Source of the DNA: Bdellovibrionota bacterium FG-2 | Lineage (GTDB): Bacteria; Bdellovibrionota; UBA1018 | Length of the DNA: 12,022 bases | Assembly (NCBI GenBank): GCA_051382305.1 | Contig: JBBCAV010000206.1 | Span: 1-12,022, forward strand | Direction of reading: 5' to 3' | Shown: positions 1 through 12,022 of the stretch, one piece after another | How the letters are laid out: each line of letters begins with the position of its first letter | Numbering within the stretch: the stretch's first letter is position 1 | Notes under the pieces: model-generated | What the model was told of the DNA's origin: nothing | Seen by the model: the letters and a program-made list of their open reading frames with translations, nothing else | The model's database searches: none | Made by a program: the position numbers and the translations under genes

Positions 1-172
1 AATAACACGACAATTTTCTACTGCTTTTTTCGCGCTACCGCTACAATGACCACAGTGCCACGCAAAATAGATCCAAAGGTTTCCCACTAGCGGTCACCTC
101 TCCGAAGGTCACAGCGGTCATGCAGTTAGCTTGAAACCATATTTGCAACGTGGTTGCGATTGAACATTTGAA

Positions 173-201
173 AACAGAAAATTCACACAAAAACATGTCA
201 A
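173..201 (-). promoter_or_regulatory. possible sigma70 promoter firing leftwards out of the window
   Basis: Minus strand reads TTGACA (201-196), 17 nt, TCTGTT (178-173), preceded by an A-rich tract (AAAAATAAAAAAAGTG). The -35 is perfect but the -10 is poor. Confidence 0.3.
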
Positions 202-244
202 CACTTTTTTTATTTTTATGAAAATAAATTAGACGGCTGGCCAA

Positions 245-329
245 TTACGCCAGAACAATTCCAGCGATAGCAAAGAGCGGCAATCTCGTTTTGCGGTAAA
301 ACCAATCTTTAAGCCTCATAAAGCCTCAT
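245..329 (-). pseudogene. N-terminal stub of a membrane protein (possibly a sensor kinase), truncated
   Basis: Directly after the SBP stop the minus strand reads GGAG-att-ATG(329). A second ATG at 319 gives MRLKDWFYRKTRLPLFAIAGIVLA then TAA (247-245): a basic N-region plus the start of a hydrophobic helix. A 10-nt tandem duplication spans the start. Identity as a sensor kinase is inferred from context only. Confidence 0.4.
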
Positions 330-330
330 A
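311..330. repeat. perfect 10-nt tandem duplication AAGCCTCATA x2
   Basis: Positions 311-320 and 321-330 are identical. Confidence 0.9.
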
Positions 331-336
331 ATCTCC

Positions 337-1872
337 CTATTTCAGCCGAAAAACATCAAGGTGCCCATAATTGCGCTGCATAAGATCGGAGTTCGCTTCA
401 ACGCGATCCCGCTTTATAATCGCAACGGCGCGACTAAAGCCAAGGTGCACAAATGGCACTTCTTCTAGTGCCACTCTAGAAACGTTTTTATAATGCGAAT
501 CCAACACCTCTTGATCAAGAAGTTTTCGTCCATCTTCAAGTAGGGCGCCCACTTTTTTCCGATAGATAGTGGGAGCCAGAATTGATCCTCGCTCGCCCAG
601 TGCATGGTAGATTCCGTCGGGGTCACCATTTAGGACGCTGAAGGTGGTTGCAAGGAGATCATAGTCCTGTCGATTGTACATGTAGTTGAAGTGCTCGCCC
701 TGGGGAATCGGCCCTGACTTTTCGGACACCGAAACGCCTGTTTTCTTCAACTCATCAGTCACCCAAAATCCAATAGGATCCGAGATGAAGTGAATTGGGT
801 GCTCTTTAGACGCTTCAATCAATTCAGGAATGAATTTCTCACCTTCTTTGATGATCTTCTCCGCCTCGGCGCGATCAAGGCGTCCAGCCTGCGCGGGAAG
901 AAAGACCTGTGGATCTAGCGAAAAATACTCCTTGGCTCCAATCAGCGTTGGTTCGCGCGAAAGACGGCTATAAATTATGAATTGCAGAGCACGCCTAAGA
1001 TTCGAATTCTCAAAAAGATGGCCCGGCATCCCATTAACATTAAGAACGATATGAATAGCCTCAGGGCCTGGCAACACTTGAAGATCGGGTTGCGCAGCAA
1101 CGTCGGAGAAAATTCGTGACCCCATCGTATACGCCATCGCGTCAATGCGATTTTCCAGTAGCGCCGCCTTCGCGTCTCTTGACCAGACAAGGGACAACTC
1201 CACCGGCCCAAGCTCCTTGGCTTCTGGATTGTATGGATTCGGTGTGAGCTTCAGAGTATTGGGAGAGGTCTCCTCGATTACAAATTTCCCAGTACCTATC
1301 AATTTACTGCCAACATTACGATAGGCCGACAACCTCGCACCATCGAAGTAATCTAGGGCCATTCGAAAAGGGCGTTTGAATCGAACGCGTAGGGTTCCGT
1401 CATCGACCACAAGAATCCCGGAGATAGTCTTATTTTGCTCAAAATTCTCAAAGCCTTCAATCTGATAGAGGGTGTCTAAAAGGCTACTATTGGCGGATTT
1501 TGGCTGCAAACGATAAGACTCCTCCCAAGAGCGTTTAAAATCATCAGCCTTAAGTGGCGATCCGTCCGAAAAGCGCTTGGATGGGTCGATTTTGAAAATG
1601 AACTCTCTATAGTCCTTTGAAATGCTCCAAGACTTTGCGCCACAAGGCTGAAGCACCCCTTGTTCGTTTGTTCCGACCAGCGTATCGAATTGATTCGACA
1701 ATACCAGTCCCGCCCAAAGAGTGTGCTGCAGTCCGGGATGGAGAGACTTCCATTCGCCGCCAATTCCCAGACGGATAGTACGGGAGCGGTCCAAATGTTT
1801 TTGTATGAGGGTAACCATTGCAATTCCTCCAAGCGCCAGAATCAAAATCAGAAGCCATTTTCTTTTGAGCAT
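337..1872 (-). CDS. family 5 (OppA/DppA-like) extracytoplasmic solute-binding protein, orphan, with N-terminal hydrophobic anchor/signal
   Basis: 511 aa with the family-5 pattern FDTLV...AKSWSISKDYREFIFKI...FSDGSPLKADD, plus DDGTLRVRFKRP, IGTGKFVI, LTPNPY and C-terminal ALEEVPFVHL. No permease or ATPase genes are present in the window. Confidence 0.9.
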   Translation of the reverse strand: MLKRKWLLILILALGGIAMVTLIQKHLDRSRTIRLGIGGEWKSLHPGLQHTLWAGLVLSNQFDTLVGTNEQGVLQPCGAKSWSISKDYREFIFKIDPSKRFSDGSPLKADDFKRSWEESYRLQPKSANSSLLDTLYQIEGFENFEQNKTISGILVVDDGTLRVRFKRPFRMALDYFDGARLSAYRNVGSKLIGTGKFVIEETSPNTLKLTPNPYNPEAKELGPVELSLVWSRDAKAALLENRIDAMAYTMGSRIFSDVAAQPDLQVLPGPEAIHIVLNVNGMPGHLFENSNLRRALQFIIYSRLSREPTLIGAKEYFSLDPQVFLPAQAGRLDRAEAEKIIKEGEKFIPELIEASKEHPIHFISDPIGFWVTDELKKTGVSVSEKSGPIPQGEHFNYMYNRQDYDLLATTFSVLNGDPDGIYHALGERGSILAPTIYRKKVGALLEDGRKLLDQEVLDSHYKNVSRVALEEVPFVHLGFSRAVAIIKRDRVEANSDLMQRNYGHLDVFRLK

Positions 1873-1889
1873 GGGCTATAAGCTTCTCA

Positions 1890-2246
1890 CTATTGGCCCC
1901 AACCGCCGCCGCCGCTTCCTACCATCGAGCTGATATTCTTCTCGTTTATCTGGAGAAGCCGGTTCTTTATCAATGTCTGAAGGGCCAGATCGAACTTGGC
2001 ATTTAGCTCTTTTTCATCCTTTATCGCGCTGACCTTACTGAAACGCGCAAAAGCCTCGTCCATAGTCGTCTCTGTCTCAAAGTCCTTAAAGAGTTGTCCC
2101 TTAATCTTGAGGGCATCACCTAAGAGAATTCCATTTTGGACCTCTCCTTCCATCGCCGAGAGCTCTGAGGTCGCAGCAAGTGAGATCGATGCTACCGGCA
2201 TCACCGCTAGGGCGGTGAGAATCAACTTACGAAATCGCAGCTTCAT
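1890..2246 (-). CDS. 118-aa exported protein; putative RiPP precursor with PqqD/RRE-like body and C-terminal GSGGGGWGQ tail
   Basis: Start reassigned from 2402 to ATG 2246 because GAAGGAG lies 7 nt upstream. The N-terminus MKLRFRKLILTALAVMPVASISLA is a Sec-type signal ending S-L-A. The gene overlaps the rSAM stop by 20 nt. The CDS is well supported; the precursor role is inference. Confidence 0.8.
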   Translation of the reverse strand: MKLRFRKLILTALAVMPVASISLAATSELSAMEGEVQNGILLGDALKIKGQLFKDFETETTMDEAFARFSKVSAIKDEKELNAKFDLALQTLIKNRLLQINEKNISSMVGSGGGGWGQ

Positions 2247-3321
2247 AAAAATACTCCTTCTTGATTTGGGTTTGAGTTTTGGGGACCAACCAACAGCCCG
2301 GATCGGCTGCCAGATAATCCCCGGTTTCGGCATAGGCCGCATTGCGATCACCGCCGCAGCGATCAAAATGGGGGCACTCCCCACAGACTTTGATTTGGCC
2401 ACGGCGAAGGTTCACAAAAATAGGATGATTGAAGAAAAGTGTTTCAAGTCTATTTCCTAGGGCGCTCCCCAATGCCAAGCGTGAGCGACTTGAAGCAAGG
2501 AGGCTGCCCTGATAGTCAATGACGAGCCCCTCCCAAAAACGACCACTTCGCCCAAGTCCAGGATGCAGGAGTGTATAGAGGGGATGATTGGTGTGAGTCT
2601 TTACGCCCGTTCTGGCGGATTCGATTAAGATGGATTGATAGGCGCGTTTTAGGGCTTCGGGGGATAGCGAGATGTTCTTATCTCCCGGCTGCTTGGGCTG
2701 GATAAGGCGAGTGAAGCTCATATGAGAAACACCCACATTTTTTGCCAGCTCAAAGAATGCTGGAATCTGGGGGGCGCTTCGTTGATCCAGGATAGCCTGG
2801 AAATAGGCGGAAACCCCATTTGCTTTAAGATACCGAGCACACGCAACAGCTTTATCGAAACTTCCGGAGCCACGAATTGAGTCGTGCGATTTTGCGTCCG
2901 GCGCATCCAAACTGATTTGGATAGAAACCTCAGGGAAGAGCTTCAACAATTCGGGGCTCAGGCGCTCAGGCAATGTGCCATTGGTCAGAATTACGATGCG
3001 GGTCTTATGATCTTTCGCGTGGATCCAATCCAAAAGCGGGCGAAAATGGGGACTCAATGATGGCTCCCCTCCGCAGAGGAGGACCATCGGGCGAAACCTG
3101 AGCCGCGCAATCATCGTATAATATTGCTCTAGGATGTCGATCCACTCAGGCAGATCAATCGCTCCTTCATTTGAATGGTTGGGGTGATAGCAGTGGGCGC
3201 ACCGAAGGTTACAAAGATTGGTAATATCGAGCTGGATTGGCAGATACCGATCTACATCGATCCAAACCAGGATCTCGTTTTCAATGCGTCGGAGAATGCG
3301 AGGTAAAAGAGAGGGAATCAC
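2227..3321 (-). CDS. radical SAM / SPASM-domain protein, putative peptide maturase
   Basis: Contains CNLRCAHC (C37-x3-C41-x2-C44), GGEP, ILTNG, QISLD...HDSIRGSGSF and a C-terminal C313-x2-C316-x5-C322...DPGC343. The GTG start overlaps the upstream TGA (GTGA coupling). Confidence 0.93.
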   Translation of the reverse strand: MIPSLLPRILRRIENEILVWIDVDRYLPIQLDITNLCNLRCAHCYHPNHSNEGAIDLPEWIDILEQYYTMIARLRFRPMVLLCGGEPSLSPHFRPLLDWIHAKDHKTRIVILTNGTLPERLSPELLKLFPEVSIQISLDAPDAKSHDSIRGSGSFDKAVACARYLKANGVSAYFQAILDQRSAPQIPAFFELAKNVGVSHMSFTRLIQPKQPGDKNISLSPEALKRAYQSILIESARTGVKTHTNHPLYTLLHPGLGRSGRFWEGLVIDYQGSLLASSRSRLALGSALGNRLETLFFNHPIFVNLRRGQIKVCGECPHFDRCGGDRNAAYAETGDYLAADPGCWLVPKTQTQIKKEYFYEAAIS

Positions 3322-3548
3322 TTTGGAGTGCCAGCCTTTATCGCCTCTTTGAGGGATCTTAAGTGACCGAGACTTGAGTGGAGACTTTTAAGCGACGCTT
3401 GGTAATATGTGGAACCGCTTTCCTCGCCATCACACTGCGTCTCGTGGATATCGGAAAATACAGCATCACAAACCGTTTGCAGGGCGCCTAGTCCGGCACG
3501 GAGATCATGATAGATTCTTTCAAGCTCTGGCAAAGTGTTCGTCGTCAT
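3318..3548 (-). CDS. 76-aa stand-alone HisKA/DHp-like helical protein
   Basis: AGGAG lies 8 nt before ATG 3548 and the stop is coupled to the rSAM start. It has an H-box-like IYHDLRAGLGAL and a second amphipathic helix (SLKSLHSSLGHLRSL). No ATPase domain. Confidence 0.65.
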   Translation of the reverse strand: MTTNTLPELERIYHDLRAGLGALQTVCDAVFSDIHETQCDGEESGSTYYQASLKSLHSSLGHLRSLKEAIKAGTPK

Positions 3549-4317
3549 TGCATGTGCTCCTGTTTTTAGGTTTCTTCTCGACGGGTATTTTTCGTTTCAA
3601 AAGACGTCTGTTTTCCTGACGAGTGAGCGCCGTCTTAAGGCGGGAACTAATGCCACTCTCTGACATCTTAAGTGCCGCAGCCACATCGCGATTTTTTGGG
3701 TATTTTGCCTTAGCGCTTTCCATGATTTTATCGCCGAACATTTCAATCAGTGCAGTGAATCCAGGAAACCCAGGACCCTCAATATCAAATTCTGATTTCA
3801 TCAGCTGATTTGCGGTTATAACCCCCTCAACATGATCCGTAGCAGATGTTTTCCTTATGCCCGTAAAGAGGTACGAAATCATTCGCCAGTTACTAAAATC
3901 TGGCTTTCTGTCTCGATCACGAGGAGAGAGAGCAAACATACGACTCAAGAGGTGGTTAATTCCACGGACATTGCCCTCGGGAGGATTATCCATTACCTCT
4001 TGAATGAAATCTTGAGGGAGATCTTCGTAGCCAACGATCACACCGGCTTCACGCGCCACCGCAGGAATGCGAGAACGAATAAGCTCTGGAATATCTTCTT
4101 TTCGCTCCGCCAGACTTGGCATTTTAGCAACAAAGGTCGAAATCCGCATATAAAGGTCTTCACGGAACTCCCCATTCTTGACCGATAGGAATTCTAATCG
4201 CAGCGGCCGAAGGAGTTCAGACATAGCGATCATCACCCCGACTGCACTAATGAGATCAAAAATGTTGAGCCCCAGTACCGATCCATTGTCATTTAGGTTT
4301 CTTGCGCCGAACACCAT
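3520..4317 (-). pseudogene. in-frame chimera: VirB3-like N-terminus fused to the C-terminal half of a sigma54-dependent enhancer-binding protein with HTH
   Basis: The likely start is ATG 4317, 1 nt after the pilin stop. The first ~45 aa (ARNLNDNGSVLGLNIFDLISAVGVMIAM) are hydrophobic and sit in the VirB3 position. From ~4182 the sequence matches bEBP motifs: VKNGEFREDLYMRI, MPSLAERKEDIPELI, PEGNVRGI and a Fis-type HTH NRDVAAALKMSESGISSRLK. Walker A, GAFTGA and Walker B are absent. Confidence 0.75.
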
Positions 4318-4318
4318 A

Positions 4319-4624
4319 TCAACCCCCAAATATCATGCGAAACAGGCCAATTAGGCTGGGTCCGGCAAAACAAAGTCCAGCACCGATAAGGCCACCAATG
4401 ATCGTACCTCTCGCGAACATCACTGCTCCCGAAATTTGGTAGATCGCAGCCCCGCAAAGAATCCCAAGCACACTCAAAGCCTTCGCAATTGAGGTTGCTT
4501 GAGTAACTGCCCCATCCGCTGCCGACGATAAGTCTCGTGCAGCAAAGCTTAAAATGGGGAAGATCAATGCAAGAGCAATGCTCCAAAGAACTCCCTTCAA
4601 ACTCTGTGGTTTAATTCTTTTCAT
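4319..4624 (-). CDS. TrbC/VirB2-like conjugative pilin
   Basis: 101 aa with a long signal peptide (ending S-F-A) followed by two Gly/Ala-rich hydrophobic helices. AGGAGG RBS. Located in an SSB/lipoprotein operon next to an integrase. Confidence 0.65.
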   Translation of the reverse strand: MKRIKPQSLKGVLWSIALALIFPILSFAARDLSSAADGAVTQATSIAKALSVLGILCGAAIYQISGAVMFARGTIIGGLIGAGLCFAGPSLIGLFRMIFGG

Positions 4625-4627
4625 ATT

Positions 4628-5173
4628 CTATTTTCCTCCTTCGGAAATCGCTGGTTTTCCCAGCGGGTTTAGTTGTGGTTGATGAAATCTAAAGAGCAGA
4701 TCCTGGTGAACGAGTTCGCTTTCTCCGGCTCTTCCCCATCGATCAACGTGGTACAAGCTCCATTCACCAGGGGTAATAAGGTTTTTGAATTTTTCTGGAA
4801 GTGGTTTGGATAGCCCCAAGCGATTTGTCGCGATCAATTCCGGGGCGATTTCGGCGTTCATTGCAGCAAGTTCTTTTTCTAGCTTCATTGCCTTTGTTTC
4901 CGCCTCATGTCTTTTTGCATCTTCATCGAAGATGAAAAGCCCCAAAGCGCCCGTGCTAGCGGCACTCAGACCGCCCCATAAAGCCGCATGAGCAAGCTTG
5001 CGCTCATCTGAGGGCGCCAATACCGCACCAATCGTCCCTGCTGTGACTGCAGAGACAGTCATCAGGGTTAACGTCTTGGAGCGGTTACTCATTGTTGAGC
5101 ACCCCCAGGAACAACTTAAGAGTCCCAGCCCCAGGAATAACGAAACGAATTGGTGCGCGTATTGGTTCTTCAT
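4628..5173 (-). CDS. lipoprotein with glycine-zipper helices and coiled coil, probably conjugation-associated
   Basis: AAAGGAGG RBS; lipobox candidates LLSC / SWGC; hydrophobic AVTAGTIGAVLA and ALWGGLSAASTGALGLFIF; coiled segment AKRHEAETKAMKLEKELAAM. Confidence 0.75.
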   Translation of the reverse strand: MKNQYAHQFVSLFLGLGLLSCSWGCSTMSNRSKTLTLMTVSAVTAGTIGAVLAPSDERKLAHAALWGGLSAASTGALGLFIFDEDAKRHEAETKAMKLEKELAAMNAEIAPELIATNRLGLSKPLPEKFKNLITPGEWSLYHVDRWGRAGESELVHQDLLFRFHQPQLNPLGKPAISEGGK

Positions 5174-5185
5174 ATAGCCTCCTTT

Positions 5186-5566
5186 CTAGAGTGATGTAGG
5201 CGCGGTTGATTCAACCGTTACCTTGGGTAAAAGCTTTGAATAGTTGATGTCGTCGGCTAGAACCTCAAACGCCCACAGCATTCTTCCGTCTGCGGTTTCG
5301 TACTGATACGTCTTGAGTGTCCCCGTAACTGACACGCGATCTCCTTTCTTAAGCGTGCCCTTCACGCGAGAGCCTAGGTTTCCGAAGCTTCGGATCGGAA
5401 ACCAGTTTGTGTGAACCTGCTCGTATTGTTTCGTTTTCTCGTTTAGCTTTGAGATGCTCTCGGCTAGCGAGAAGGTAACGACACCGTTTGAGTCCTCACT
5501 TTTTTTGTAGTGCTCGGGGTCCGACCCGATGTTTCCCGTAACTACGACCTGATTTGTTGTACTCAT
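5186..5566 (-). CDS. ssb: single-stranded DNA-binding protein (126 aa, no acidic tail)
   Basis: OB-fold motifs NQVVVTGNIGSDPE, VTFSLA, TNWF and LKKGDRVSVTGTLKT. Start reassigned to ATG 5566 because AAGGAG lies 8 nt upstream. Confidence 0.92.
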   Translation of the reverse strand: MSTTNQVVVTGNIGSDPEHYKKSEDSNGVVTFSLAESISKLNEKTKQYEQVHTNWFPIRSFGNLGSRVKGTLKKGDRVSVTGTLKTYQYETADGRMLWAFEVLADDINYSKLLPKVTVESTAPTSL

Positions 5567-5669
5567 TGCATTGTCTCCTTCTTTGTTTATAGTTTTACGT
5601 TCACTGCTCACTGGCCTTCACCAATGACACTTTCAAAAGTTCGTCCAAGCACCGAGACCCTGCCCTTGA

Positions 5670-6149
5670 TTTGGACGGGAGGGTATCCGGGTTCGCAAAA
5701 GTTGGAGCACTCGCTTCAAAAAGGCTGGGCCAACTAAGGCCGGATATTGGCGCACGCTGCCCGTTTCGAGTAAATTCTACTGGTTTCTGATGAAAGAGGT
5801 GAAGATTGAGGCGATCAAGCCAGATGCCTTCCTTTTTCCGAGATCTTGGGAGTGGGATCAGGGTCAACAAGCAAGTATTCTACGTGGATTCTGCCAAGCC
5901 AATCGCCTGACGTCCGTCAGGTTCCATGCACTCAGGGCCTGCTTCGCAACGCAGTTGATTGCTACGGGGATTCCAGCAACGGTAGTAATGAAGATTTGCG
6001 GATGGAAGGACATGAAGACTATGCAACGTTACATTCGCCTCGCAGGTATCGACGAGGCTGGTGCCACAGAGACGCTGCACTTCATCCCAACTGAAGCAGC
6101 AGTAATGGAAAAAGTAGGGAGCTTGTACGATCCTACGAAGCAAGGATGA
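5670..6149 (+). pseudogene. tyrosine recombinase/integrase, 5'-truncated C-terminal fragment
   Basis: The frame of ORF 5790..6149 stays open back to TGA 5667-5669 and reads IRVRKSWSTRFKKAGPTKAGYWRTLPVS...FHALRACFATQL...ICGWKDMKTMQRYIR (catalytic K, H-x-x-R, W, Y). The first catalytic Arg box and the N-terminal domains are missing. Confidence 0.88.
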
Positions 6150-6186
6150 CTAAATGGAAAAACTTTGAGATAAGATCTTTCTAGGT

Positions 6187-7299
6187 ATGAAGAAACAAAA
6201 AGACGTTAAGAAGAAGATTCTGTCACAAGCTGTGACAGAAATGGGTGCGGTCCTCGGCTATGCTACTTTTCTGTCTGAAATTAAGGCACGTGTAGCAGCG
6301 GCACAAACACGTGCCACAATGGCCGTCAATCGCGAGATGCTTGCCCTCTATTGGCACATCGGTCGTTCCATTATTGAGCGGCAAAAGACAGAAAAGTGGG
6401 GCTCTTCTGTTATCGAACGTTTCGCGACCGATATGCAAAAAGCATTTCCAGGAATCGAAGGTTTTTCGGAACGAAACATCTGGAAAATGCGGGCATTTTA
6501 TCTCGCTTACCCAGAAAAACTTAGCCGCACAGCCGCCACCAAGATAAACCACTCATTTCTGCCACAAGCTGTGGCAGAAATACCCTGGGGCCACCAAGTT
6601 GTACTGATCGAAACCGTGAAGTCTTCAAAAGAACGCGATTTTTACGCAAAAATGGCACTCAAAAATGGTTGGTCCAGGGCTATTTTAATGATGCAAATTG
6701 AGAGCGGGCTTGCTGCGAGACAAGGAAAAGCGATCACCAATTTCAAGAACACCATTCTTCCACCGCATTCCGATATGGCCCAACAATCGCTCAAAGACCC
6801 GTATGTTTTTGACTTTCTAACCTTGGCTACTGATGCACAAGAGCATGAGTTTGAACAAGGGTTGATGAATCATGTCCAGAAGTTCCTGCTGGAACTTGGG
6901 GTAGGCTTTGCATTCGTTGGACGCCAGGTTCACCTTAAGGTCGGCAAGAAGGATTACTACGTCGATTTGCTGTTCTATCACCTAACGCTTCGCCGTTTTT
7001 TTGTAATCGAGCTAAAGACAAAGGCTTTTGAGCCGGAGTTTGCGGGAAAAATGAACTTCTATCTTTCGGCGGTTGACGACAAGTTCAAGCACCCCGATGA
7101 TCAACCCAGCATAGGACTGCTACTTTGTAAGTCAAAGGACAAGTTTGAGGTTGAATACGCCTTGAGGAGGGTGAGCTCACCCATCAGTGTTTCCGCATGG
7201 GAGACTCGGTTGGTCGAATCATTACCCAAGGAGCTGAAGGCAAGTTTGCCAACAGTGAAACAGTTGGAAGAAGAATTCAGTGGAGAGAAAGAGAAGTGA
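6187..7299 (+). CDS. yhcG: YhcG/DUF1016 family PDDEXK nuclease-domain protein
   Basis: Characteristic motifs VNREMLALYWHIG, WGSSVIE, GFSERNIWKMRAFY, IPWGH, LKDPYVFDFL, FLLELGVGFAFVGRQ, DLLFYH, VIELK, GKMNFYL and IGLLLCK. Confidence 0.95.
   Translation: MKKQKDVKKKILSQAVTEMGAVLGYATFLSEIKARVAAAQTRATMAVNREMLALYWHIGRSIIERQKTEKWGSSVIERFATDMQKAFPGIEGFSERNIWKMRAFYLAYPEKLSRTAATKINHSFLPQAVAEIPWGHQVVLIETVKSSKERDFYAKMALKNGWSRAILMMQIESGLAARQGKAITNFKNTILPPHSDMAQQSLKDPYVFDFLTLATDAQEHEFEQGLMNHVQKFLLELGVGFAFVGRQVHLKVGKKDYYVDLLFYHLTLRRFFVIELKTKAFEPEFAGKMNFYLSAVDDKFKHPDDQPSIGLLLCKSKDKFEVEYALRRVSSPISVSAWETRLVESLPKELKASLPTVKQLEEEFSGEKEK
6218..6240. repeat. perfect inverted repeat, copy 1 (TTCTGTCACA-agc-TGTGACAGAA)
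   Basis: 10-bp arms with a 3-nt spacer, inside the yhcG CDS, encoding ILSQAVTE. Confidence 0.9.
6555..6581. repeat. perfect inverted repeat, copy 2 (ATTTCTGCCACA-agc-TGTGGCAGAAAT)
   Basis: 12-bp arms with the same agc spacer, encoding FLPQAVAEI; 23/25 identical to copy 1. Confidence 0.9.
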
Positions 7300-7367
7300 A
7301 CGCATCAGTATTTCCCAGCATTTCGCGAACATTCTTAGAGCACTTTAAGTTGTCGAGATTTTCGCAC

Positions 7368-7402
7368 TTGCTTAACGCAGATGCTTTTCCTACAATAGGA
7401 AA
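7368..7402 (+). promoter_or_regulatory. sigma70 promoter of the U32 gene with a palindrome over the -10
   Basis: TTGCTT (7368-7373), 17 nt, TACAAT (7391-7396). TTTCCTA-caa-TAGGAAA (7386-7402) overlaps the -10 box. Confidence 0.6.
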
Positions 7403-7470
7403 GAACGAGTCGCAAGTACGCAGAATTATTCAGTGTGAATCACCTCCACCAAAATTTTAGAAAGTCCACA

Positions 7471-10107
7471 ATGACCGTCCCCCCCATTGCGCCAAACTTA
7501 AGGCCAAAGGTCTTGCGTCGCCCCGAAATTCTTGCCCCGGCCGGGGACATTGATAGCATGCGCGCGGCCCTTTTCAGTGGGGCCAACGCGGTATTTTTTG
7601 GACTTGATGAGGGCTTTAATGCTCGCTCGCGAGCCAAGAATTTTCCGGTGGCACGTCTTCAGGAAACGGTGGAAATGATACATCGTGCGGGTGCCAAAGC
7701 GTACGTAACAATGAACACGCTTGTTTTTGAAGCCGAACTCCAAGACGCTGAGGACCTTATTCGAGCATGTGCTCGTTGCGGCGTGGATGCTTTGTTAGTG
7801 CAAGATCCGGCCGTTTCGCTGCTGGCCAGAGCGATATGCCCATCGCTTGATCTTCACGCCAGTACTCAAATGACGATTAGTTCAGCCGAAGCTGCTGAAT
7901 TTGCTCGCACCTTGGGAATCAAGCGCGTTGTTATTCCGCGAGAACTCTCGGTTTCAGAAATTGATCACTTCAAGAAGAATACAGACCTCGAAATTGAAGT
8001 CTTCATTCATGGCGCTTTGTGTGTGGCGTGGAGCGGTCAGTGTTTAAGCAGCGAAGTCTGGGGCGGGCGATCGGCAAACCGCGGTCAGTGCGCTCAATCG
8101 TGTCGCATGCCATATGACCTCATCGTCGATGGTAAATTCGTACCGCAGGGTGAAATCAAATATTTTCTAAGCCCAAAGGATTTGGCGGGCTATCGGGCGG
8201 TACCTGCCCTGATGGAAACGGGAGTTCATTCGCTAAAAATCGAAGGCCGTCTTAAGGGACCCGCCTATGTTGCCACAGTGATACGAGGCTTGAGTCATTG
8301 GATGGATGCAATTGTAAATGGGATCGCAGACCAACCTGAACCGCAGCAAGTTTTGGCTAAAGCACTTTCACAAATGATGGTCACTTACTCGCGGGGTTTT
8401 GGTGACGGATTTTTAGCGGGGGTCGATCATCAGAATCTGGTCGATGGGCGATTTCCGCGGCATCGGGGGTATTTAGTCGGGACGGTTCAGCGCGTTCAAG
8501 GAAAACATGTTTGGGTTGAAAAAGGGCCCCTGGCACTAAGGCATTTTGTGCGCGGGAAAACCCTGGCAGGTGTGGTGGCCTCACCGTTGCCGCCTCTTGG
8601 GGGGGCACCGGATTCTTCTACAGGGGCGGCAGTGGCTGATCTGCAAATTCGCCCTGGAATGGGCGTATGCTTTGATGCCGGTAAGCCTGAATCACACGAT
8701 GAGGCCGGAGGCCCCATTTTTGAAACACGCCGCGAGGGATCGACTTGGATTTTAGGTTTTGGAATTCCGGGCCCTGATTTAACTCGAGTTCAAATCGGAG
8801 ATCGAGTTTGGCTTAATAGCGATCCTGAGATTACTCGCTTTGCCAATCAAGCGGCTCAGGGCGAGGTGCGTGAGGGTAAAAATCCACTCGTGTTTCGAAT
8901 AAGCGGCAAAATGGGCGAACCGCTTCGAATTGAAGTTAGGAGTAATCGCTATGGAGAGCTTCTGATCGAGAGTGCCGAATCTTTAGTCGCCGCAAGCGGA
9001 AAGGGCCTGAGCTCGGAGATCATGAGCGAAAAACTTTGTGCGCTCGGAGGAACGCCGTTTTATTTAGAGGCGCTTCAGTTTGCGCTCGAAGGAGATTTGC
9101 ACTTTCCGGTCAGTCAACTCAAAGTACTTCGACGAAAAATCGTCGAAGAATTTGAACGGCGGCTCGCGCTGCCGCGAAAAGATGTCGAGACGGAGCCAGT
9201 TCTTCGCGCACTCAAGGCTAAACCGTTTAGTTTTCCGCGCGCGCAAACTGAAATCCCAGAACTTGTTGTTCTCTGCCGCACGATGGACCAGCTGGAGGCC
9301 GTGATCGCACTTGGCTTCAAAGAAGTCGAGCTGGATTGGATGGAGTTGGTAGGCCTTGGAGAGGCGGTCGATCGAGCGAAAAAGGCTGGCCTCAAAGTGA
9401 CGATCGCCACAATGAGAGTTCAAAAGCCGGGAGAAGATGGATTTGATCGGCGCATCGCCTGCCTTGAACCCGAGGCGGTCCTAGTACGCAATTGGGGCGC
9501 ACTAATGCAGTTTAGAAAAGAGGGCGCGCTCGGCAGGAGGAATCCGATTATTCATGGTGACTTTTCCTTGAATGTGACCAATTCTCTGAGCGCAAAGCAT
9601 GTGCTCGCCTTGGGGCTAGACACTCTGACGGCCGCACATGATTTAAATAGTGAGCAGCTTGTGGCCTTGCTTCGCGAAGTCCCGCCAGCGCTTGTGACGG
9701 TGGTTGTGCATCATCATATTTCAACTTTTCATACCGAGCATTGCGTTTACGCACAGAACCTCTCACCTGGAAAGGATTTTCATTCTTGTGGGCGTCCCTG
9801 CGAAAAACATCGTGTTGCGCTCCGGGACCATCTGGGCAATGAACACCCCGTCGTGGTGGATGTCGGATGTCGAAATACTGTCTTTAATGCGCAGGCTCAA
9901 AGTGCGGCCGCCCTAGTCCCTTCGTTGATCAAGCAAGGCGTAAAGCGGTTCCGAGTTGAATTCGTTTGGGAGTCCGGACATACCGCAACTGATGTTCTGC
10001 AATCTTATCAAGCGCTCCTCATCGGATCGCTCTCAAGCGATGAACTCGTTAGACGGATTGGTGTCTACGAGCAGTTCGGTGTAACGCAAGGAACGATGGC
10101 GCGTTAG
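7471..10107 (+). CDS. long U32-family protein (two U32-like repeats, probable DUF3656 region); RlhA-like Fe-S RNA hydroxylation factor
   Basis: PEILAPAG, LHASTQM, RELS, EVFIHGALCVAWSGQC...SANRGQCAQSCRMPY, LSPKDL and SLKIEGR, plus a second Cys cluster HTEHC...CGRPC...GCRNTVFN. The start is ATG 7471 or GTG 7435. The substrate is inferred from family knowledge. Confidence 0.9.
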   Translation: MTVPPIAPNLRPKVLRRPEILAPAGDIDSMRAALFSGANAVFFGLDEGFNARSRAKNFPVARLQETVEMIHRAGAKAYVTMNTLVFEAELQDAEDLIRACARCGVDALLVQDPAVSLLARAICPSLDLHASTQMTISSAEAAEFARTLGIKRVVIPRELSVSEIDHFKKNTDLEIEVFIHGALCVAWSGQCLSSEVWGGRSANRGQCAQSCRMPYDLIVDGKFVPQGEIKYFLSPKDLAGYRAVPALMETGVHSLKIEGRLKGPAYVATVIRGLSHWMDAIVNGIADQPEPQQVLAKALSQMMVTYSRGFGDGFLAGVDHQNLVDGRFPRHRGYLVGTVQRVQGKHVWVEKGPLALRHFVRGKTLAGVVASPLPPLGGAPDSSTGAAVADLQIRPGMGVCFDAGKPESHDEAGGPIFETRREGSTWILGFGIPGPDLTRVQIGDRVWLNSDPEITRFANQAAQGEVREGKNPLVFRISGKMGEPLRIEVRSNRYGELLIESAESLVAASGKGLSSEIMSEKLCALGGTPFYLEALQFALEGDLHFPVSQLKVLRRKIVEEFERRLALPRKDVETEPVLRALKAKPFSFPRAQTEIPELVVLCRTMDQLEAVIALGFKEVELDWMELVGLGEAVDRAKKAGLKVTIATMRVQKPGEDGFDRRIACLEPEAVLVRNWGALMQFRKEGALGRRNPIIHGDFSLNVTNSLSAKHVLALGLDTLTAAHDLNSEQLVALLREVPPALVTVVVHHHISTFHTEHCVYAQNLSPGKDFHSCGRPCEKHRVALRDHLGNEHPVVVDVGCRNTVFNAQAQSAAALVPSLIKQGVKRFRVEFVWESGHTATDVLQSYQALLIGSLSSDELVRRIGVYEQFGVTQGTMAR

Positions 10108-10277
10108 TAACGCCACATTATGTAACCGGGCACATGATCCACGGTAACATCGGCCGCAGAAGCCGGAGCGCGATCAAAGGATTCGCCTTGCGGGGGAGAA
10201 ACTGACTCTTGCGCGCAGCCCGCGAGAACACAAAACCCCAGAACCAGCACCAAACACAAAGCGTATCGAATAGTCAT
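10104..10277 (-). CDS. 57-aa small lipoprotein (not in ORF track)
   Basis: MTIRYALCLVLVLGFCVLAGCAQESVSPPQGESFDRAPASAADVTVDHVPGYIMWRY*. It has a canonical LAGC lipobox (C21), an AAGGGAG RBS and an upstream sigma28-like promoter. Its stop overlaps the convergent U32 stop. Confidence 0.7.
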   Translation of the reverse strand: MTIRYALCLVLVLGFCVLAGCAQESVSPPQGESFDRAPASAADVTVDHVPGYIMWRY

Positions 10278-11106
10278 AATGGCACTCCCTTTCTTTGGGC
10301 GTATCGGCTTTTCTCGGAAAAAATTGAATTTTTTTATTTATTAAATCCTGAACTACTCCGGTAGTTCCCGGAGGCACCAGGAGCATCGTGTCCAGTTTCG
10401 GACAACGTATTTTCAAAAAATCGGAGAGCTGTTTGTCATCTTGAAACGTCAGGACGGCATCCCTCTTCTGATAGCCAAAATAGGTGAATAGCTCGGAGTT
10501 CGGCACCGAACAGGTTTCACCCGAAGGCGCCCTGAAAATGCAGGAGCGCTTAGAATCCGTAATAGGGGCGTCGCCCATCTTCCACCCGCAATCAAGCAGC
10601 AAGCCCTTGTACTTGGGGATCTCAAAACCACCCTGATTTTTCATGCTGACTTTCTTGGCCTCTTTGAACTCGCCTCCAGAAAAGCTCAGTGGTCGACCCG
10701 TGGTCCCTGAAAAACGCCAAAAATCGCCCGAAGGGACCCGCACTGTGATAGATTCATCAGGAGAAATTTCGTATGTAGGAACGCCGCCTCTTCTCGGAAA
10801 AAGATAAAAGACGCGAGCACCGTTTTCGCTCTTTAAGGCACTAAACGCCAAGAGTTGACCATCGTCTTGAAAATTAAAAGTGCGATTCCCCGCCCCTTTT
10901 TCATCGCCTGCGAAACCCACTGACAGAAGGCACCTCTTAGAGGCGGGTCCATATAGGATTTGAACCTTGACGTCATTCGGTTGAAAAAAATCCTCTTTGC
11001 AAGCGGCTTCACCACCACTAGGCGTCCGTATTGGGGTAACCCCAAAAGCTGTGCTTGAAAGGAGCAGAATTCCTAAAGACACCCAAAAAGGGGTTGACCG
11101 CATCAT
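10174..11106 (-). CDS. exported hypothetical protein, Cys-containing; last ~55 aa possibly read-through
   Basis: Signal peptide MMRSTPFWVSLGILLLSSTAFG and a long open frame. The 3' end runs through an AT-rich tract, a promoter-like motif and 104 nt of the small lipoprotein gene. Confidence 0.75.
   Translation of the reverse strand: MMRSTPFWVSLGILLLSSTAFGVTPIRTPSGGEAACKEDFFQPNDVKVQILYGPASKRCLLSVGFAGDEKGAGNRTFNFQDDGQLLAFSALKSENGARVFYLFPRRGGVPTYEISPDESITVRVPSGDFWRFSGTTGRPLSFSGGEFKEAKKVSMKNQGGFEIPKYKGLLLDCGWKMGDAPITDSKRSCIFRAPSGETCSVPNSELFTYFGYQKRDAVLTFQDDKQLSDFLKIRCPKLDTMLLVPPGTTGVVQDLINKKIQFFPRKADTPKERECHYDYSIRFVFGAGSGVLCSRGLRARVSFSPARRIL
10301..10327 (-). promoter_or_regulatory. FliA/sigma28-like promoter for the small lipoprotein
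   Basis: TCAA (10327-10324), 15 nt, GCCGATAC (10308-10301); the consensus is TAAA-N15-GCCGATAA. Confidence 0.6.
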
Positions 11107-11112
11107 GTTGCC

Positions 11113-11140
11113 TTATCGGCACATCGCAAAAGGAACTAAA
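11113..11140 (-). promoter_or_regulatory. FliA/sigma28-like promoter for the exported protein
   Basis: Perfect -10 GCCGATAA (11120-11113) with a weak -35 TTTAGTT starting at 11140. The -10 ends 6 nt before ATG 11106. Confidence 0.55.
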
Positions 11141-11177
11141 TCTTGCTTTTTGACGCGTCGCATTATATACATAATCC

Positions 11178-11801
11178 ATGTGCGCCCGCCAAAGCCAGGC
11201 AGTCCAACTCGCCCTCACCTTCTGCACCCTGCTCGTGCTCACGCTTTCCGTCCCTTCCGCTTTGGCTGAAGTACTTCTCGTCTACAAAAATAAGAGCGAG
11301 CTCTCCGTTCGAATTGCCACGGAACAAGAACAAAAACGCCACCTCTCCGAAGCAAATGGTTTTTTCTTTGAGAGCGAAGCCACAAAACAGTCCTATGAGC
11401 AAATCACTCACGCCTTATCTCCAGTCGTGGGCGAAGCGGAGGCCAAAAAGGCATTCGCATTCTTGAGTTCACAAACCCAGATCCCATTCTCTATTATTGA
11501 CGACGGCTGCTACGCACGCGCTCACGAGATGGCACTCTTGCTTGAATTAAGAGGAATCCTCAGCAAAAAAGTTTTTGTCTATGGCAAGCTGTTTGCCACA
11601 GGAAAATATGGCTCGGCTCCCTGGAAGTACCACGTCGCTCCGATGGTTCAAGTTCGCCGCGCAAACGGCTTGGTGGAACAAATGATTTTCGATCCCTCGC
11701 TCTTTTCTCAACCCTCACCCCTCCGCGATTGGTTCGCCACTATTGGACAACCCCACTGCCCCGAGGCACACGGAAACACCTTAGGAACTGTAACAAAATA
11801 A
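11178..11801 (+). CDS. secreted protein-glutaminase-domain protein, 3' end interrupted by IS
   Basis: Signal peptide ending A-L-A and a Cys-His-Asp triad in DGCYARAH, WKYHVAP and IFDPSLF. The last codons (GTVTK*) and the stop lie in the putative IS end. Confidence 0.85.
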   Translation: MCARQSQAVQLALTFCTLLVLTLSVPSALAEVLLVYKNKSELSVRIATEQEQKRHLSEANGFFFESEATKQSYEQITHALSPVVGEAEAKKAFAFLSSQTQIPFSIIDDGCYARAHEMALLLELRGILSKKVFVYGKLFATGKYGSAPWKYHVAPMVQVRRANGLVEQMIFDPSLFSQPSPLRDWFATIGQPHCPEAHGNTLGTVTK

Positions 11802-11806
11802 CTGAG

Positions 11807-11852
11807 TGATGTTCACAGTAAACATAGTGTACCGTTTTTTCTGTGAACATCA
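11807..11852. repeat. 12-bp inverted repeat covering the transposase start codon
   Basis: TGATGTTCACAG (11807-11818) pairs with CTGTGAACATCA (11841-11852), which contains GTG 11843. Confidence 0.85.
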
Positions 11853-12022
11853 GTGGTCTTCGTCAGAAGTACCGGGCTATCGCGCCTGCGTTGAGCGAAC
11901 GCAGCCGAAGACTTTGGGCAGCGGCCGAAGCTGTATCCATCGGACACGGCGGTATTGCAAAGGTGGAGCGCGCCACTGATATTTCTCTTTCGACCATTAG
12001 CCGTGGGATCAAGGAATTGGAA
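11843..12022 (+). CDS. ISAzo13-family transposase, N-terminal 60 aa (partial)
   Basis: MNISGLRQKYRAIAPALSERSRRLWAAAEAVSIGHGGIAKVERATDISLSTISRGIKELE matches the family N-terminal pattern L.ER.RRLWAA.EA...G.GGI..V..AT.....TI.RG..EL. The frame is open to the window end. Confidence 0.88.
   Translation, partial: MNISGLRQKYRAIAPALSERSRRLWAAAEAVSIGHGGIAKVERATDISLSTISRGIKELE

Follow-up and report, generated by a model that had tools for sequence, protein, structure and literature searches.

A conserved radical SAM cassette of Bdellovibrionota whose candidate precursors share a signal-peptide-like leader and, in one clade, a weakly PqqD-like middle domain

Introduction

How does a radical S-adenosylmethionine (SAM) enzyme without a recognition domain of its own find its substrate? 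This question is raised by a 12,022-nucleotide stretch of DNA from Bdellovibrionota bacterium FG-2 (contig JBBCAV010000206.1, positions 1 to 12,022; hereafter the window). Here, the gene of such an enzyme overlaps by 20 nucleotides a small gene for a putative precursor of a peptide that is made on the ribosome and modified after translation (RiPP). A preliminary description of the locus proposed that the precursor supplies the missing RiPP recognition element (RRE) itself, as a PqqD-like domain placed behind a signal peptide. The evidence gathered below points to a different part of the precursor: its leader is the constant element of a cassette found in related genomes, and the PqqD resemblance of its middle domain is weak, limited to the helical half of that fold and confined to a single clade of enzymes.

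The precursor and its leader

The 118-residue open reading frame (ORF) of the precursor is real, running on the minus strand from an ATG at 2246 to a stop codon at 1892-1890 behind a strong Shine-Dalgarno site. It lies between the radical SAM gene and a gene for an extracytoplasmic binding protein of the SBP_bac_5 family (SBP). The range first given for it, 1929-2246, covers residues 1-106 only; the sequence then quoted for its PqqD-like pattern is indeed present and corresponds to residues 46-100. Three segments can be distinguished: a leader that resembles a signal peptide, a middle domain predicted to be winged-helix-like, and a short tail of the SMVGSGGGGWGQ type, the probable core (Table 1).

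The family has only a few close members, four homologues at 60-85% identity having been found by a word-indexed search, two of them also named Bdellovibrionota bacterium FG-2. An exhaustive search of representatives yielded 32 proteins at E<=1e-3, nearly all of 105-125 residues, and a profile search, with 35 at the same threshold, added more; most members come from metagenome sources. For 11 of the precursor matches, the longest contig equals in length that of an enzyme match, an early sign that the two genes are linked. Neither Pfam nor NCBIfam has a model for the family, NCBIfam lacks one for every precursor type described below, and ESM Atlas searches with residues 31-110 and with the whole precursor returned no usable match. 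Only Pro17 and Ala25, both in the N-terminal hydrophobic segment, are invariant in alignments of 34 and of 62 sequences, and Leu13 and Ser111 are conserved at 90% or more in both. There is no conserved cysteine.

As had been proposed, the N-terminus has the make-up of a Sec signal peptide by heuristic counts: a positive n-region (MKLRFRK, with four Lys/Arg among the first ten residues), a hydrophobic, uncharged run of 20 residues, and a small-x-small motif in SLAA. The same heuristics applied to 49 precursors of the cassette found at least two Lys/Arg within the first ten residues in 48, an uncharged run of at least 15 residues in 45, a Pro inside this run in 47, and a small-x-small motif in 48. 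The absence of a dedicated exporter was also borne out among the genes of the window.

The conservation of this segment is not what a signal peptide leads one to expect. Mean pairwise identity is 35% in the leader vs 17% in the rest of the precursor, and the SBPs of the same loci, used as an internal control, show the opposite pattern (14% in the signal or anchor vs 39% in the mature part). By this comparison, the leader, although it resembles a signal peptide, shows much stronger conservation.

Organization of the cassette in related genomes

When species-representative genomes were scanned with an alignment of the enzyme, 281 relatives were confirmed, and the analysis covered the 80 best loci. 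Fifty-four of these (L001-L053 and L058) form the in-group, with enzymes 36-53% identical to that of the window (up to 60% in two short matches at contig ends). They belong mostly to Bdellovibrionota (Bdellovibrionia, Bacteriovoracia and Oligoflexia, including Silvanigrellales), with some 'Elusimicrobia' metagenome-assembled genomes and a few others.

A leader-bearing precursor was recognized in 48 of the 49 in-group loci with sequence past the enzyme gene, L051 having none; 42 were identified by a hidden Markov model (HMM) of the leader at E<0.1 and six by eye. The precursor gene lies directly 3' of the enzyme gene on the same strand and often overlaps it, the exception being L038, where it follows two SBP genes. 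When the leader HMM was run against all stop-to-stop segments of at least 25 residues in the 80 loci and the window, every one of its 44 matches at E<=1 was a cassette precursor. The leader is, moreover, the sole segment common to all precursor types (48 precursors). Because related clusters without the middle domain share only this segment, the leader rather than the middle domain looks like the true handle of the cassette.

The preliminary description had left out the genes that surround this pair. In 43 of the 54 in-group loci, the next gene after that of the precursor encodes an SBP_bac_5 orthologue, which has a signal or anchor at its N-terminus, and nine of the 11 loci without it end at a contig edge, so that only L012 and L051 lack it. 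A histidine kinase of about 550 residues, with two transmembrane (TM) helices and a loop of about 100 residues, comes after the SBP in 39 of the 54. In 26 of them, a sigma-54-dependent regulator with receiver (REC) and AAA+ domains is adjacent, measuring 472-521 residues when full-length. No discrete PqqD gene was found in any in-group locus with an HMM of outgroup PqqD proteins.

The consensus of sigma-54 promoters used here is TGGCAC-N5-TTGC. Such -24/-12 sites number 58 on the coding strand vs 20.3 in shuffled sequences, and many lie 10-90 nt upstream of the regulator gene, among them those at 4545 in L001, 4512 in L011, 1444 in L020, 4511 in L024, 4487 in L026, 4482 in L027, 659 in L029 and 4486 in L037. 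Their position just upstream of this gene suggests that the regulator is positively autoregulated. A small gene beside the enzyme gene, its product conserved in the leader and variable elsewhere, has the layout of a RiPP precursor. Together, the conserved set of sigma-54 regulator, radical SAM enzyme, precursor, SBP, histidine kinase and sigma-54-type promoter suggests a self-sensing peptide circuit.

Precursor types and enzyme phylogeny

Behind the common leader, the 48 precursors (46-138 residues) differ so much that four types were distinguished by eye. Type A, which holds the middle domain of the window's precursor, occurs in 13 loci, in two of them shortened. Type B, found in 17 loci, has a different helical domain (E-G-E-M-M-R-R-L ... 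K-Y-Y-D-F). Type C, in 12 loci, comprises proteins of 46-75 residues with no middle domain, such as a leader followed by about 24 residues ending in GGGTSR; 11 of these loci have forms of 46-62 residues. Type D occurs in four Oligoflexus loci and shows a G-G-T-T-S-G motif right after the leader, followed by a helical stretch. Two precursors remained unclassified.

The type-D loci, L013 (precursor at 6938-7366), L031 (6904-7350), L039 (6013-6393) and L040 (7063-7383), also differ in gene order, their sigma-54 regulator being placed after the kinase and not before the enzyme. Their motif, in full A-G-G-T-T-S-G, lies about 15 residues past the leader, and the helical follower is long.

In a tree of 61 radical SAM enzymes, those paired with type A form one clade (Shimodaira-Hasegawa-like approximate likelihood ratio test, SH-aLRT, 96), made up of 14 type-A rows, the window among them, together with L012 and L002. 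This clade is nested in the in-group, the backbone of which is unresolved. An origin of type A as the earliest branch, beside the PqqD-linked outgroup, was considered and does not emerge from this tree. The middle domain of type B was likewise considered as PqqD-like and showed no similarity (hhalign score 11.8).

The middle domain and its resemblance to PqqD

The main claim made for the middle domain was that residues of about 25-105 follow the helix spacing of PqqD and form an RRE. The first part was partly sustained. When the 62-sequence family was compared with nine Pfam-confirmed PqqD proteins by hhalign, family positions 47-104 were aligned to PqqD 41-98 in the proposed register (probability 30.3%, P 5.4e-4, score 25.4, 58 columns, 9% identity), over helices 1-3 only. 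In a repeat with controls, the real score of 24.1 compared with 11.8 and 11.9 for reversed profiles and with a mean of 10.4 (standard deviation 2.2, maximum 19.1) for 200 column shuffles, none of which reached it. The same register was recovered in 15 of 15 subset comparisons (P 5e-4 to 0.26). The spacing is thus above chance at the profile level, but the similarity is sub-threshold, concerns the helical half only and has no Pfam match behind it. PF05402 did not match the window's precursor at E<=1, nor any of the 62 family members at E<=10, a range in which the HMMER filters drop most matches above about 0.1. As a positive control, the same model recognized eight of 65 small ORFs of the outgroup at 1e-5 to 3e-10. 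The type-A precursor of L044 matches an HMM of the outgroup PqqD proteins at E=0.025.

An AlphaFold2 (AF2) model computed on the 62 sequences contains helices at residues 37-52, 62-73 and 78-94, a bridge at 59-60 and strands at 98-100 and 105-107, an order of elements that, in this model, is the canonical one of a winged helix. Its mean predicted local distance difference test (pLDDT) score is 61.8, with 66-79 per block over residues 41-110, and its predicted template modelling (pTM) score is 0.47. Residues 16-40 fall below a pLDDT of 50 and form no sheet, the strands being predicted after helix 3, so that the model does not agree with the structural definition of an RRE: its helices resemble the alpha-alpha-alpha half of PqqD, and the three-stranded sheet that precedes them in PqqD is missing.

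Among the 50 Foldseek matches listed of at least 500 in the Protein Data Bank (PDB), winged helices such as DpnI (E 0.017, probability 1.00), E2F-DP, the cullin winged-helix B domain (WHB) and BlaI were found; none of all the matches reached E<=0.001, and the 50 listed include no chain of a PqqD or RRE. A first, shallow model (five sequences, pLDDT 58) had given nothing below E=1.3. A profile search of the PDB with the family returned only de novo designed repeat proteins and ParM (E 7e-4 to 1e-2) and no PqqD, and the weak Pfam matches within the family went to SelB-wing_2 (two members, 2.2e-4), HemN_C (three) and MCM4_WHD (one). The predicted fold is winged-helix-like. Taking the Pfam model, the RRE structure and the listed fold matches together, residues of about 25-105 do not behave as an RRE. 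Nor is such a domain required throughout the system: it is confined to one enzyme clade, 17 loci have an unrelated domain in its place, and 12 have none.

Distant relatives of the cassette do hold a true PqqD. In 13 outgroup loci (enzymes 26-32% identical to that of the window), a PqqD gene stands directly after the enzyme gene; PF05402 recognized it among eight of the 65 small ORFs scanned, and an HMM made from these outgroup proteins extended the count to the 13. It is followed by a Cys-rich precursor of 43-54 residues. The order enzyme, PqqD, precursor is seen in L054, L056, L057, L059, L061, L068, L069, L073-L075, L077 and L079; the outgroup precursors end in C-[RK]-Q-C-S-[GS]-C-H-G-C-R, and in several of these loci a methyltransferase-like ORF and an ORF of about 1000 residues come next.

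These observations allow the weak resemblance, limited as it is to the helical half, to be read as descent or as convergence, and either may be right. Convergence, by which such a score would be expected of any small three-helix winged helix whose last helix is amphipathic and terminates in G-L-I/L, is a serious candidate that we nevertheless incline to doubt. It is favoured by the hhalign probability of only 30% at 9% identity, by the preference of the weak Pfam matches and the listed Foldseek matches for other winged helices, and by the position of type A in the enzyme tree, which is not that of the earliest branch. Against it stand the shuffled and reversed controls, well below the real score, the stability of the register across independent halves of both alignments, and the fact that the middle domain occupies the very position of the true outgroup PqqD gene.

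A working RRE in cis, which would dock the precursor on the enzyme so that its tail enters the active site and is exported by Sec afterwards, appears improbable. The hhalign result in the proposed register, unmatched by any shuffle and stable in subsets, the L044 match, the outgroup PqqD gene at the same position, the lack of an RRE in the enzyme and of a discrete RRE gene nearby, and the winged-helix-like model are all consistent with it. However, in addition to the failure of all 62 members to match PF05402 and to the absence of PqqD or RRE chains from the 50 matches listed, there is no beta1-beta3 half, the part in which the groove for the peptide is formed, pLDDT being below 50 before helix 1, and orthologous enzymes are paired with another domain (17 loci, score 11.8) or with none (12 loci, 46-75 residues). 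Known RREs, furthermore, bind the peptide and not the enzyme barrel, and a cis RRE would therefore need a new logic.

An intermediate possibility is that the type-A precursor is a fossil fusion, in which the helical half of the PqqD gene that stood behind the ancestral enzyme gene became inserted between a Sec-type leader and the core and would still act in cis as half of an RRE, holding the tail before export. The missing half may then be completed by the C-terminal beta-hairpin of the precursor or by the enzyme. This scenario is also considered unlikely.

The radical SAM enzyme

The enzyme was correctly described as having 36 residues before its CxxxCxxC motif (C37-x3-C41-x2-C44) and no N-terminal RRE; an N-terminal domain was present in none of 35 aligned orthologues. 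It carries the CxxxCxxC motif and the SAM-binding core of the superfamily, including a GGE motif, and C37, C41, C44, C313, C316, C322 and C343 are invariant in the orthologue alignment.

The seven-Cys SPASM motif corresponds to two auxiliary clusters. The full motif is absent here: the C-terminus (residues 255-343) has a single set of four cysteines, CX2CX5C plus a distal one (C313, C316, C322 and C343), and none at the positions of the auxiliary cluster I (Aux-I) ligands of the anaerobic sulfatase-maturating enzyme (anSME). Where anSME has PCDFYV, a stretch that holds an Aux-I ligand Cys and the proposed base (Asp), the enzyme has an invariant ASSRSR. The single four-Cys set and this replacement argue for one auxiliary cluster at the Aux-II position, and not for a twitch-type Aux-I cluster.

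The enzyme does not belong to a curated maturase family, since all 70 of its NCBIfam matches lie below cut-off (the best, TIGR04053, at 100 bits vs 395), as do those of the orthologues L001 and L013. Compared with solved structures, the best core match is SkfB (1.4e-21), and the longest alignment among the matches listed is with anSME (E 1.6e-17, positions 31-324). MftC, ScmE and GeoRSP are also similar, and the best curated matches include AhbD and NirJ. With a conserved Ser in the precursor tail, an anSME-like oxidation suggests itself as a lead, and is offered here as nothing beyond that.

Proposed mechanism and alternative explanations

The reading favoured here, drawn from gene order, conservation pattern, domain content and promoter-like sites, stands in our judgement at about an even chance. 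According to it, the 118-residue protein would serve as substrate for the cytoplasmic radical SAM enzyme encoded next to it and would be exported by Sec. This enzyme, having no RRE, would most likely bind the leader directly as its recognition sequence, and the same leader would most likely provide Sec targeting and the cleavage signal. Modification would then probably take place before export on the short Gly/Ser-rich C-terminal tail, the presumed core, at or beside the conserved Ser. This Ser is nearly invariant in type A, and a Ser column is kept in all 12 of 12 type-B sequences.

The middle domain (70 residues) would be a clade-specific, winged-helix-like insert, dispensable to the system overall. 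The source of its helices may be the PqqD gene found behind the enzyme gene in distant relatives, the beta-sheet half having been lost. It may act as a carrier or pro-domain, serving solubility, retention before export or presentation of the tail, rather than as a docking element. Once exported, the modified product would probably be bound by the SBP of the cassette, and from this protein the signal would pass via the two-TM histidine kinase to the sigma-54 regulator. By driving the operon from its sigma-54 promoter, this regulator would close a self-sensing loop.

Several points weigh against this reading. The contact with the enzyme, the binding of the leader and the export are all deduced from anatomy and conservation, and the leader could be conserved for some other reason, for instance a specialized peptidase or route of targeting. 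The middle domain may have a docking role within the type-A clade, which is kept in play by the above-chance PqqD similarity and by the L044 match at E=0.025. A Ser near the C-terminus is present in 41 of 43 precursors, a count that is weak evidence, because a Ser in this region is common. The precursor types were assigned by eye, the AF2 model is only moderate in confidence, and the cassette of the window has lost its regulators, so that it may be inactive. Finally, in bufferins, a group of RiPPs discussed below, the signal peptide was dispensable for modification (PMC11626156).

That the 118-residue protein is no substrate at all, but assists the SBP-kinase sensor in the periplasm, for instance as a modulator or as a tethered mimic of the ligand, the enzyme acting on another target such as the SBP or a small molecule, is decidedly unlikely. 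In its favour, the length of the protein is high among RiPP precursors and it contains a folded domain, the best curated matches of the enzyme include the non-peptide enzymes AhbD and NirJ, and the SBP and kinase genes are linked to the 118-residue gene as tightly as the enzyme gene is, but the precursor layout (conserved leader, hypervariable middle, short conserved tail, and forms of 46-62 residues in 11 loci), a gene that abuts that of the enzyme in all loci but L038, often overlapping it, and the similarity of the enzyme to peptide and protein maturases (SkfB, anSME, MftC, ScmE and GeoRSP) speak against it. The favoured reading, with the leader as recognition and export signal, is the one followed below.

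The copy in the window

In the window, the core trio of enzyme, precursor and SBP is intact (Table 1), and its control loop is broken, since both the regulator and the kinase are truncated.

Table 1. Features of the cassette in the window and its immediate surroundings
Feature	Position	Strand	Basis or remark
Histidine kinase remnant, first 24 codons (MRLKDWFYRKTRLPLFAIAGIVLA), then stop	245..319	minus	translation compared with kinase N-termini of L008 and L014
SBP_bac_5 extracytoplasmic binding protein, 511 aa, N-terminal signal or anchor	337..1872	minus	Pfam 1.8e-26
Precursor gene (type A), 118 aa + stop	1890..2246	minus	ORF and translation
Tail, residues 108-118, SMVGSGGGGWGQ-type, nearly invariant Ser111, probable core	1893..1925	minus	conservation; disordered in AF2 model
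Middle domain, residues 37-107, three helices and beta-hairpin, winged-helix-like (predicted)	1926..2138	minus	AF2, Foldseek, hhalign
Leader, residues 1-25, signal-peptide-like (MKLRFRK, hydrophobic run, SLAA)	2172..2246	minus	invariant Pro17 and Ala25
Radical SAM enzyme, 364 aa, SPASM-derived C-terminus	2227..3321	minus	Pfam Radical_SAM 5.6e-19
Shine-Dalgarno site GAAGGAG	2254..2260	minus	7 nt before precursor ATG, within 3' end of enzyme gene
76-aa ORF, HD-containing, H-box-like motif	3318..3548	minus	overlaps enzyme gene start by 4 nt
Truncated sigma-54-dependent regulator, 269 aa	3520..4329	minus	AAA_lid_14 9.1e-5

The regulator is cut on its 5' side and lacks the receiver domain and most of the AAA+ domain; it matches NtrC and RtcR only at about 283-426, and what is left comprises the last part of the AAA+ domain with the lid and the C-terminus. 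Remnants of mobile elements lie beside it: a TraA-like pilin ORF (4319-4624), a gene for a single-stranded DNA-binding protein (SSB; 5186-5611), a 3' fragment of a tyrosine integrase gene (5790-6149) and a YhcG/DUF1016 nuclease gene (6187-7299). Because the 5'-truncated regulator abuts these remnants, an insertion is suggested to have separated the cassette from its promoter. No sigma-54-type site remains near the cassette.

At the other end, the kinase remnant was found by reading the translation, a tblastn search of the window for such remnants having given nothing significant. A 10-bp tandem duplication (TATGAGGCTT twice, 311-330) is located at its start, just past the stop codon of the SBP gene, and the sequence left of 245 is unrelated.

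The 76-residue ORF upstream of the enzyme gene has no Pfam or NCBIfam match. Small ORFs (about 72-76 residues), likewise with no Pfam match, occupy the same position between regulator and enzyme genes in L008 (5770-5988), L014 (5778-5993), L015 (148-417), L017 (3312-3695) and L053 (5687-5989). These five share the motif L[KR]HD..GL..P, for which the window's copy has IYHDLRAGLGAL; in a phmmer comparison, the window's ORF was not significantly similar to its positional counterparts. It was also considered as the missing RRE and set aside, for want of a Pfam match and because the H-box-like motif of its counterparts is closer to the dimerization and histidine phosphotransfer (DHp) helix of kinases.

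Two further genes of the window are unrelated to the cassette. One encodes an 890-residue protein of the U32 peptidase family with a TrhP/UbiU-like N-terminus (7435-10107), and the other a secreted Gln_deamidase_2 protein (2.3e-25) similar to protein-glutamine glutaminases (11178-11801).

Comparison with known systems

With PqqD and RREs (PF05402), the middle domain shares three helices of similar length and spacing, the last of which ends in G-L-I/L, and its gene follows that of the enzyme directly, like the PqqD genes of the 13 outgroup loci. Unlike them, it is fused behind a signal-like leader and ahead of a probable core, it occurs in one clade of the cassette only, it has no PF05402 match, and the N-terminal three-stranded sheet is missing.

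The residue modified by anSME is a Ser or Cys, in a protein with a Sec signal that is exported later. The cassette enzyme is of similar size, also has no RRE, and gives its longest alignment, among the matches listed, with this maturase (PDB 4K36-4K39). It differs in the absence of the Aux-I cysteines and in ASSRSR instead of PCDFYV. The presumed substrate is also different, a small dedicated peptide rather than a sulfatase, with no C/S-x-P-x-R motif.

Some sensor kinases depend on binding proteins, as exemplified by LuxP-LuxQ, TorT-TorS and CBP-ChiS; CBP, like the SBP of the cassette, is a member of the peptide/nickel binding protein family. Common to these systems and the cassette is an SBP gene beside that of a histidine kinase, which has two TM helices and a small loop in the periplasm. 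In contrast to them, the presumed ligand of the cassette would be encoded in its own operon and made by a radical SAM enzyme. A sigma-54 activator forms the output here and apparently drives the same operon.

Among RiPPs, the bufferins come closest in their anatomy. They derive from DUF2282 precursors with Sec signal peptides that are modified by a multinuclear non-haem iron-dependent oxidase (MNIO) (PMC11626156). They have in common with the window's precursor its length, the Sec-type signal peptide and a folded mature part, and they are modified in the cytoplasm and exported by the general pathway with no dedicated exporter, as would be the case for the window's cassette (PMC11626156). However, the same text assigns their modification to an MNIO and a partner with an RRE-like domain, in place of the lone radical SAM enzyme seen here; bufferins are Cys-rich copper binders, while the window's family has no conserved Cys; and no SBP-kinase-sigma-54 module is reported for them (PMC11626156).

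In the His-Xaa-Ser system, HxsA is a protein with a signal peptide that is matured by radical SAM enzymes and acts in the periplasm (PMC13128918). The cassette would be similar in pairing radical SAM maturation with a signal peptide and action in the periplasm. It differs in its enzyme, which reaches 49 bits against the NCBIfam model of HxsC (cut-off 268), HxsB and HxsC being the enzymes of the other system. That system is further characterized by HxS repeats, which are absent here, and by a different function, phage defence (PMC13128918), and it has no SBP or kinase.

The literature searched, which did not include subscription journals, contains no description of the cassette or of such a self-sensing system in Bdellovibrionota or Oligoflexia.

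Significance

Most RiPP genome mining rests on RRE domains and dedicated exporters, and this cassette has neither. Instead, an enzyme without an RRE and with what appears to be a single auxiliary cluster is paired with precursors that are constant only in their Sec-signal-like leader. If the enzyme and the Sec machinery both recognize this leader, it would illustrate how the work of an Fe-S enzyme in the cytoplasm can precede general secretion, and the leader profile offers a search handle for a class that is missed by current tools.

The faint PqqD likeness of type A, together with the outgroup PqqD gene at the same position, makes the cassette a testable case of gain, fusion or loss of a recognition domain. 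Should the fossil fusion prove true, a RiPP precursor would for the first time be seen to have a recognition element of its own, and this within an operon-encoded autoinducer circuit (SBP, kinase and sigma-54 regulator) of predatory bacteria. With its linked SBP, kinase, sigma-54 regulator and promoter, the cassette would be a candidate for self-sensing by peptides in Bdellovibrionota and Oligoflexia.

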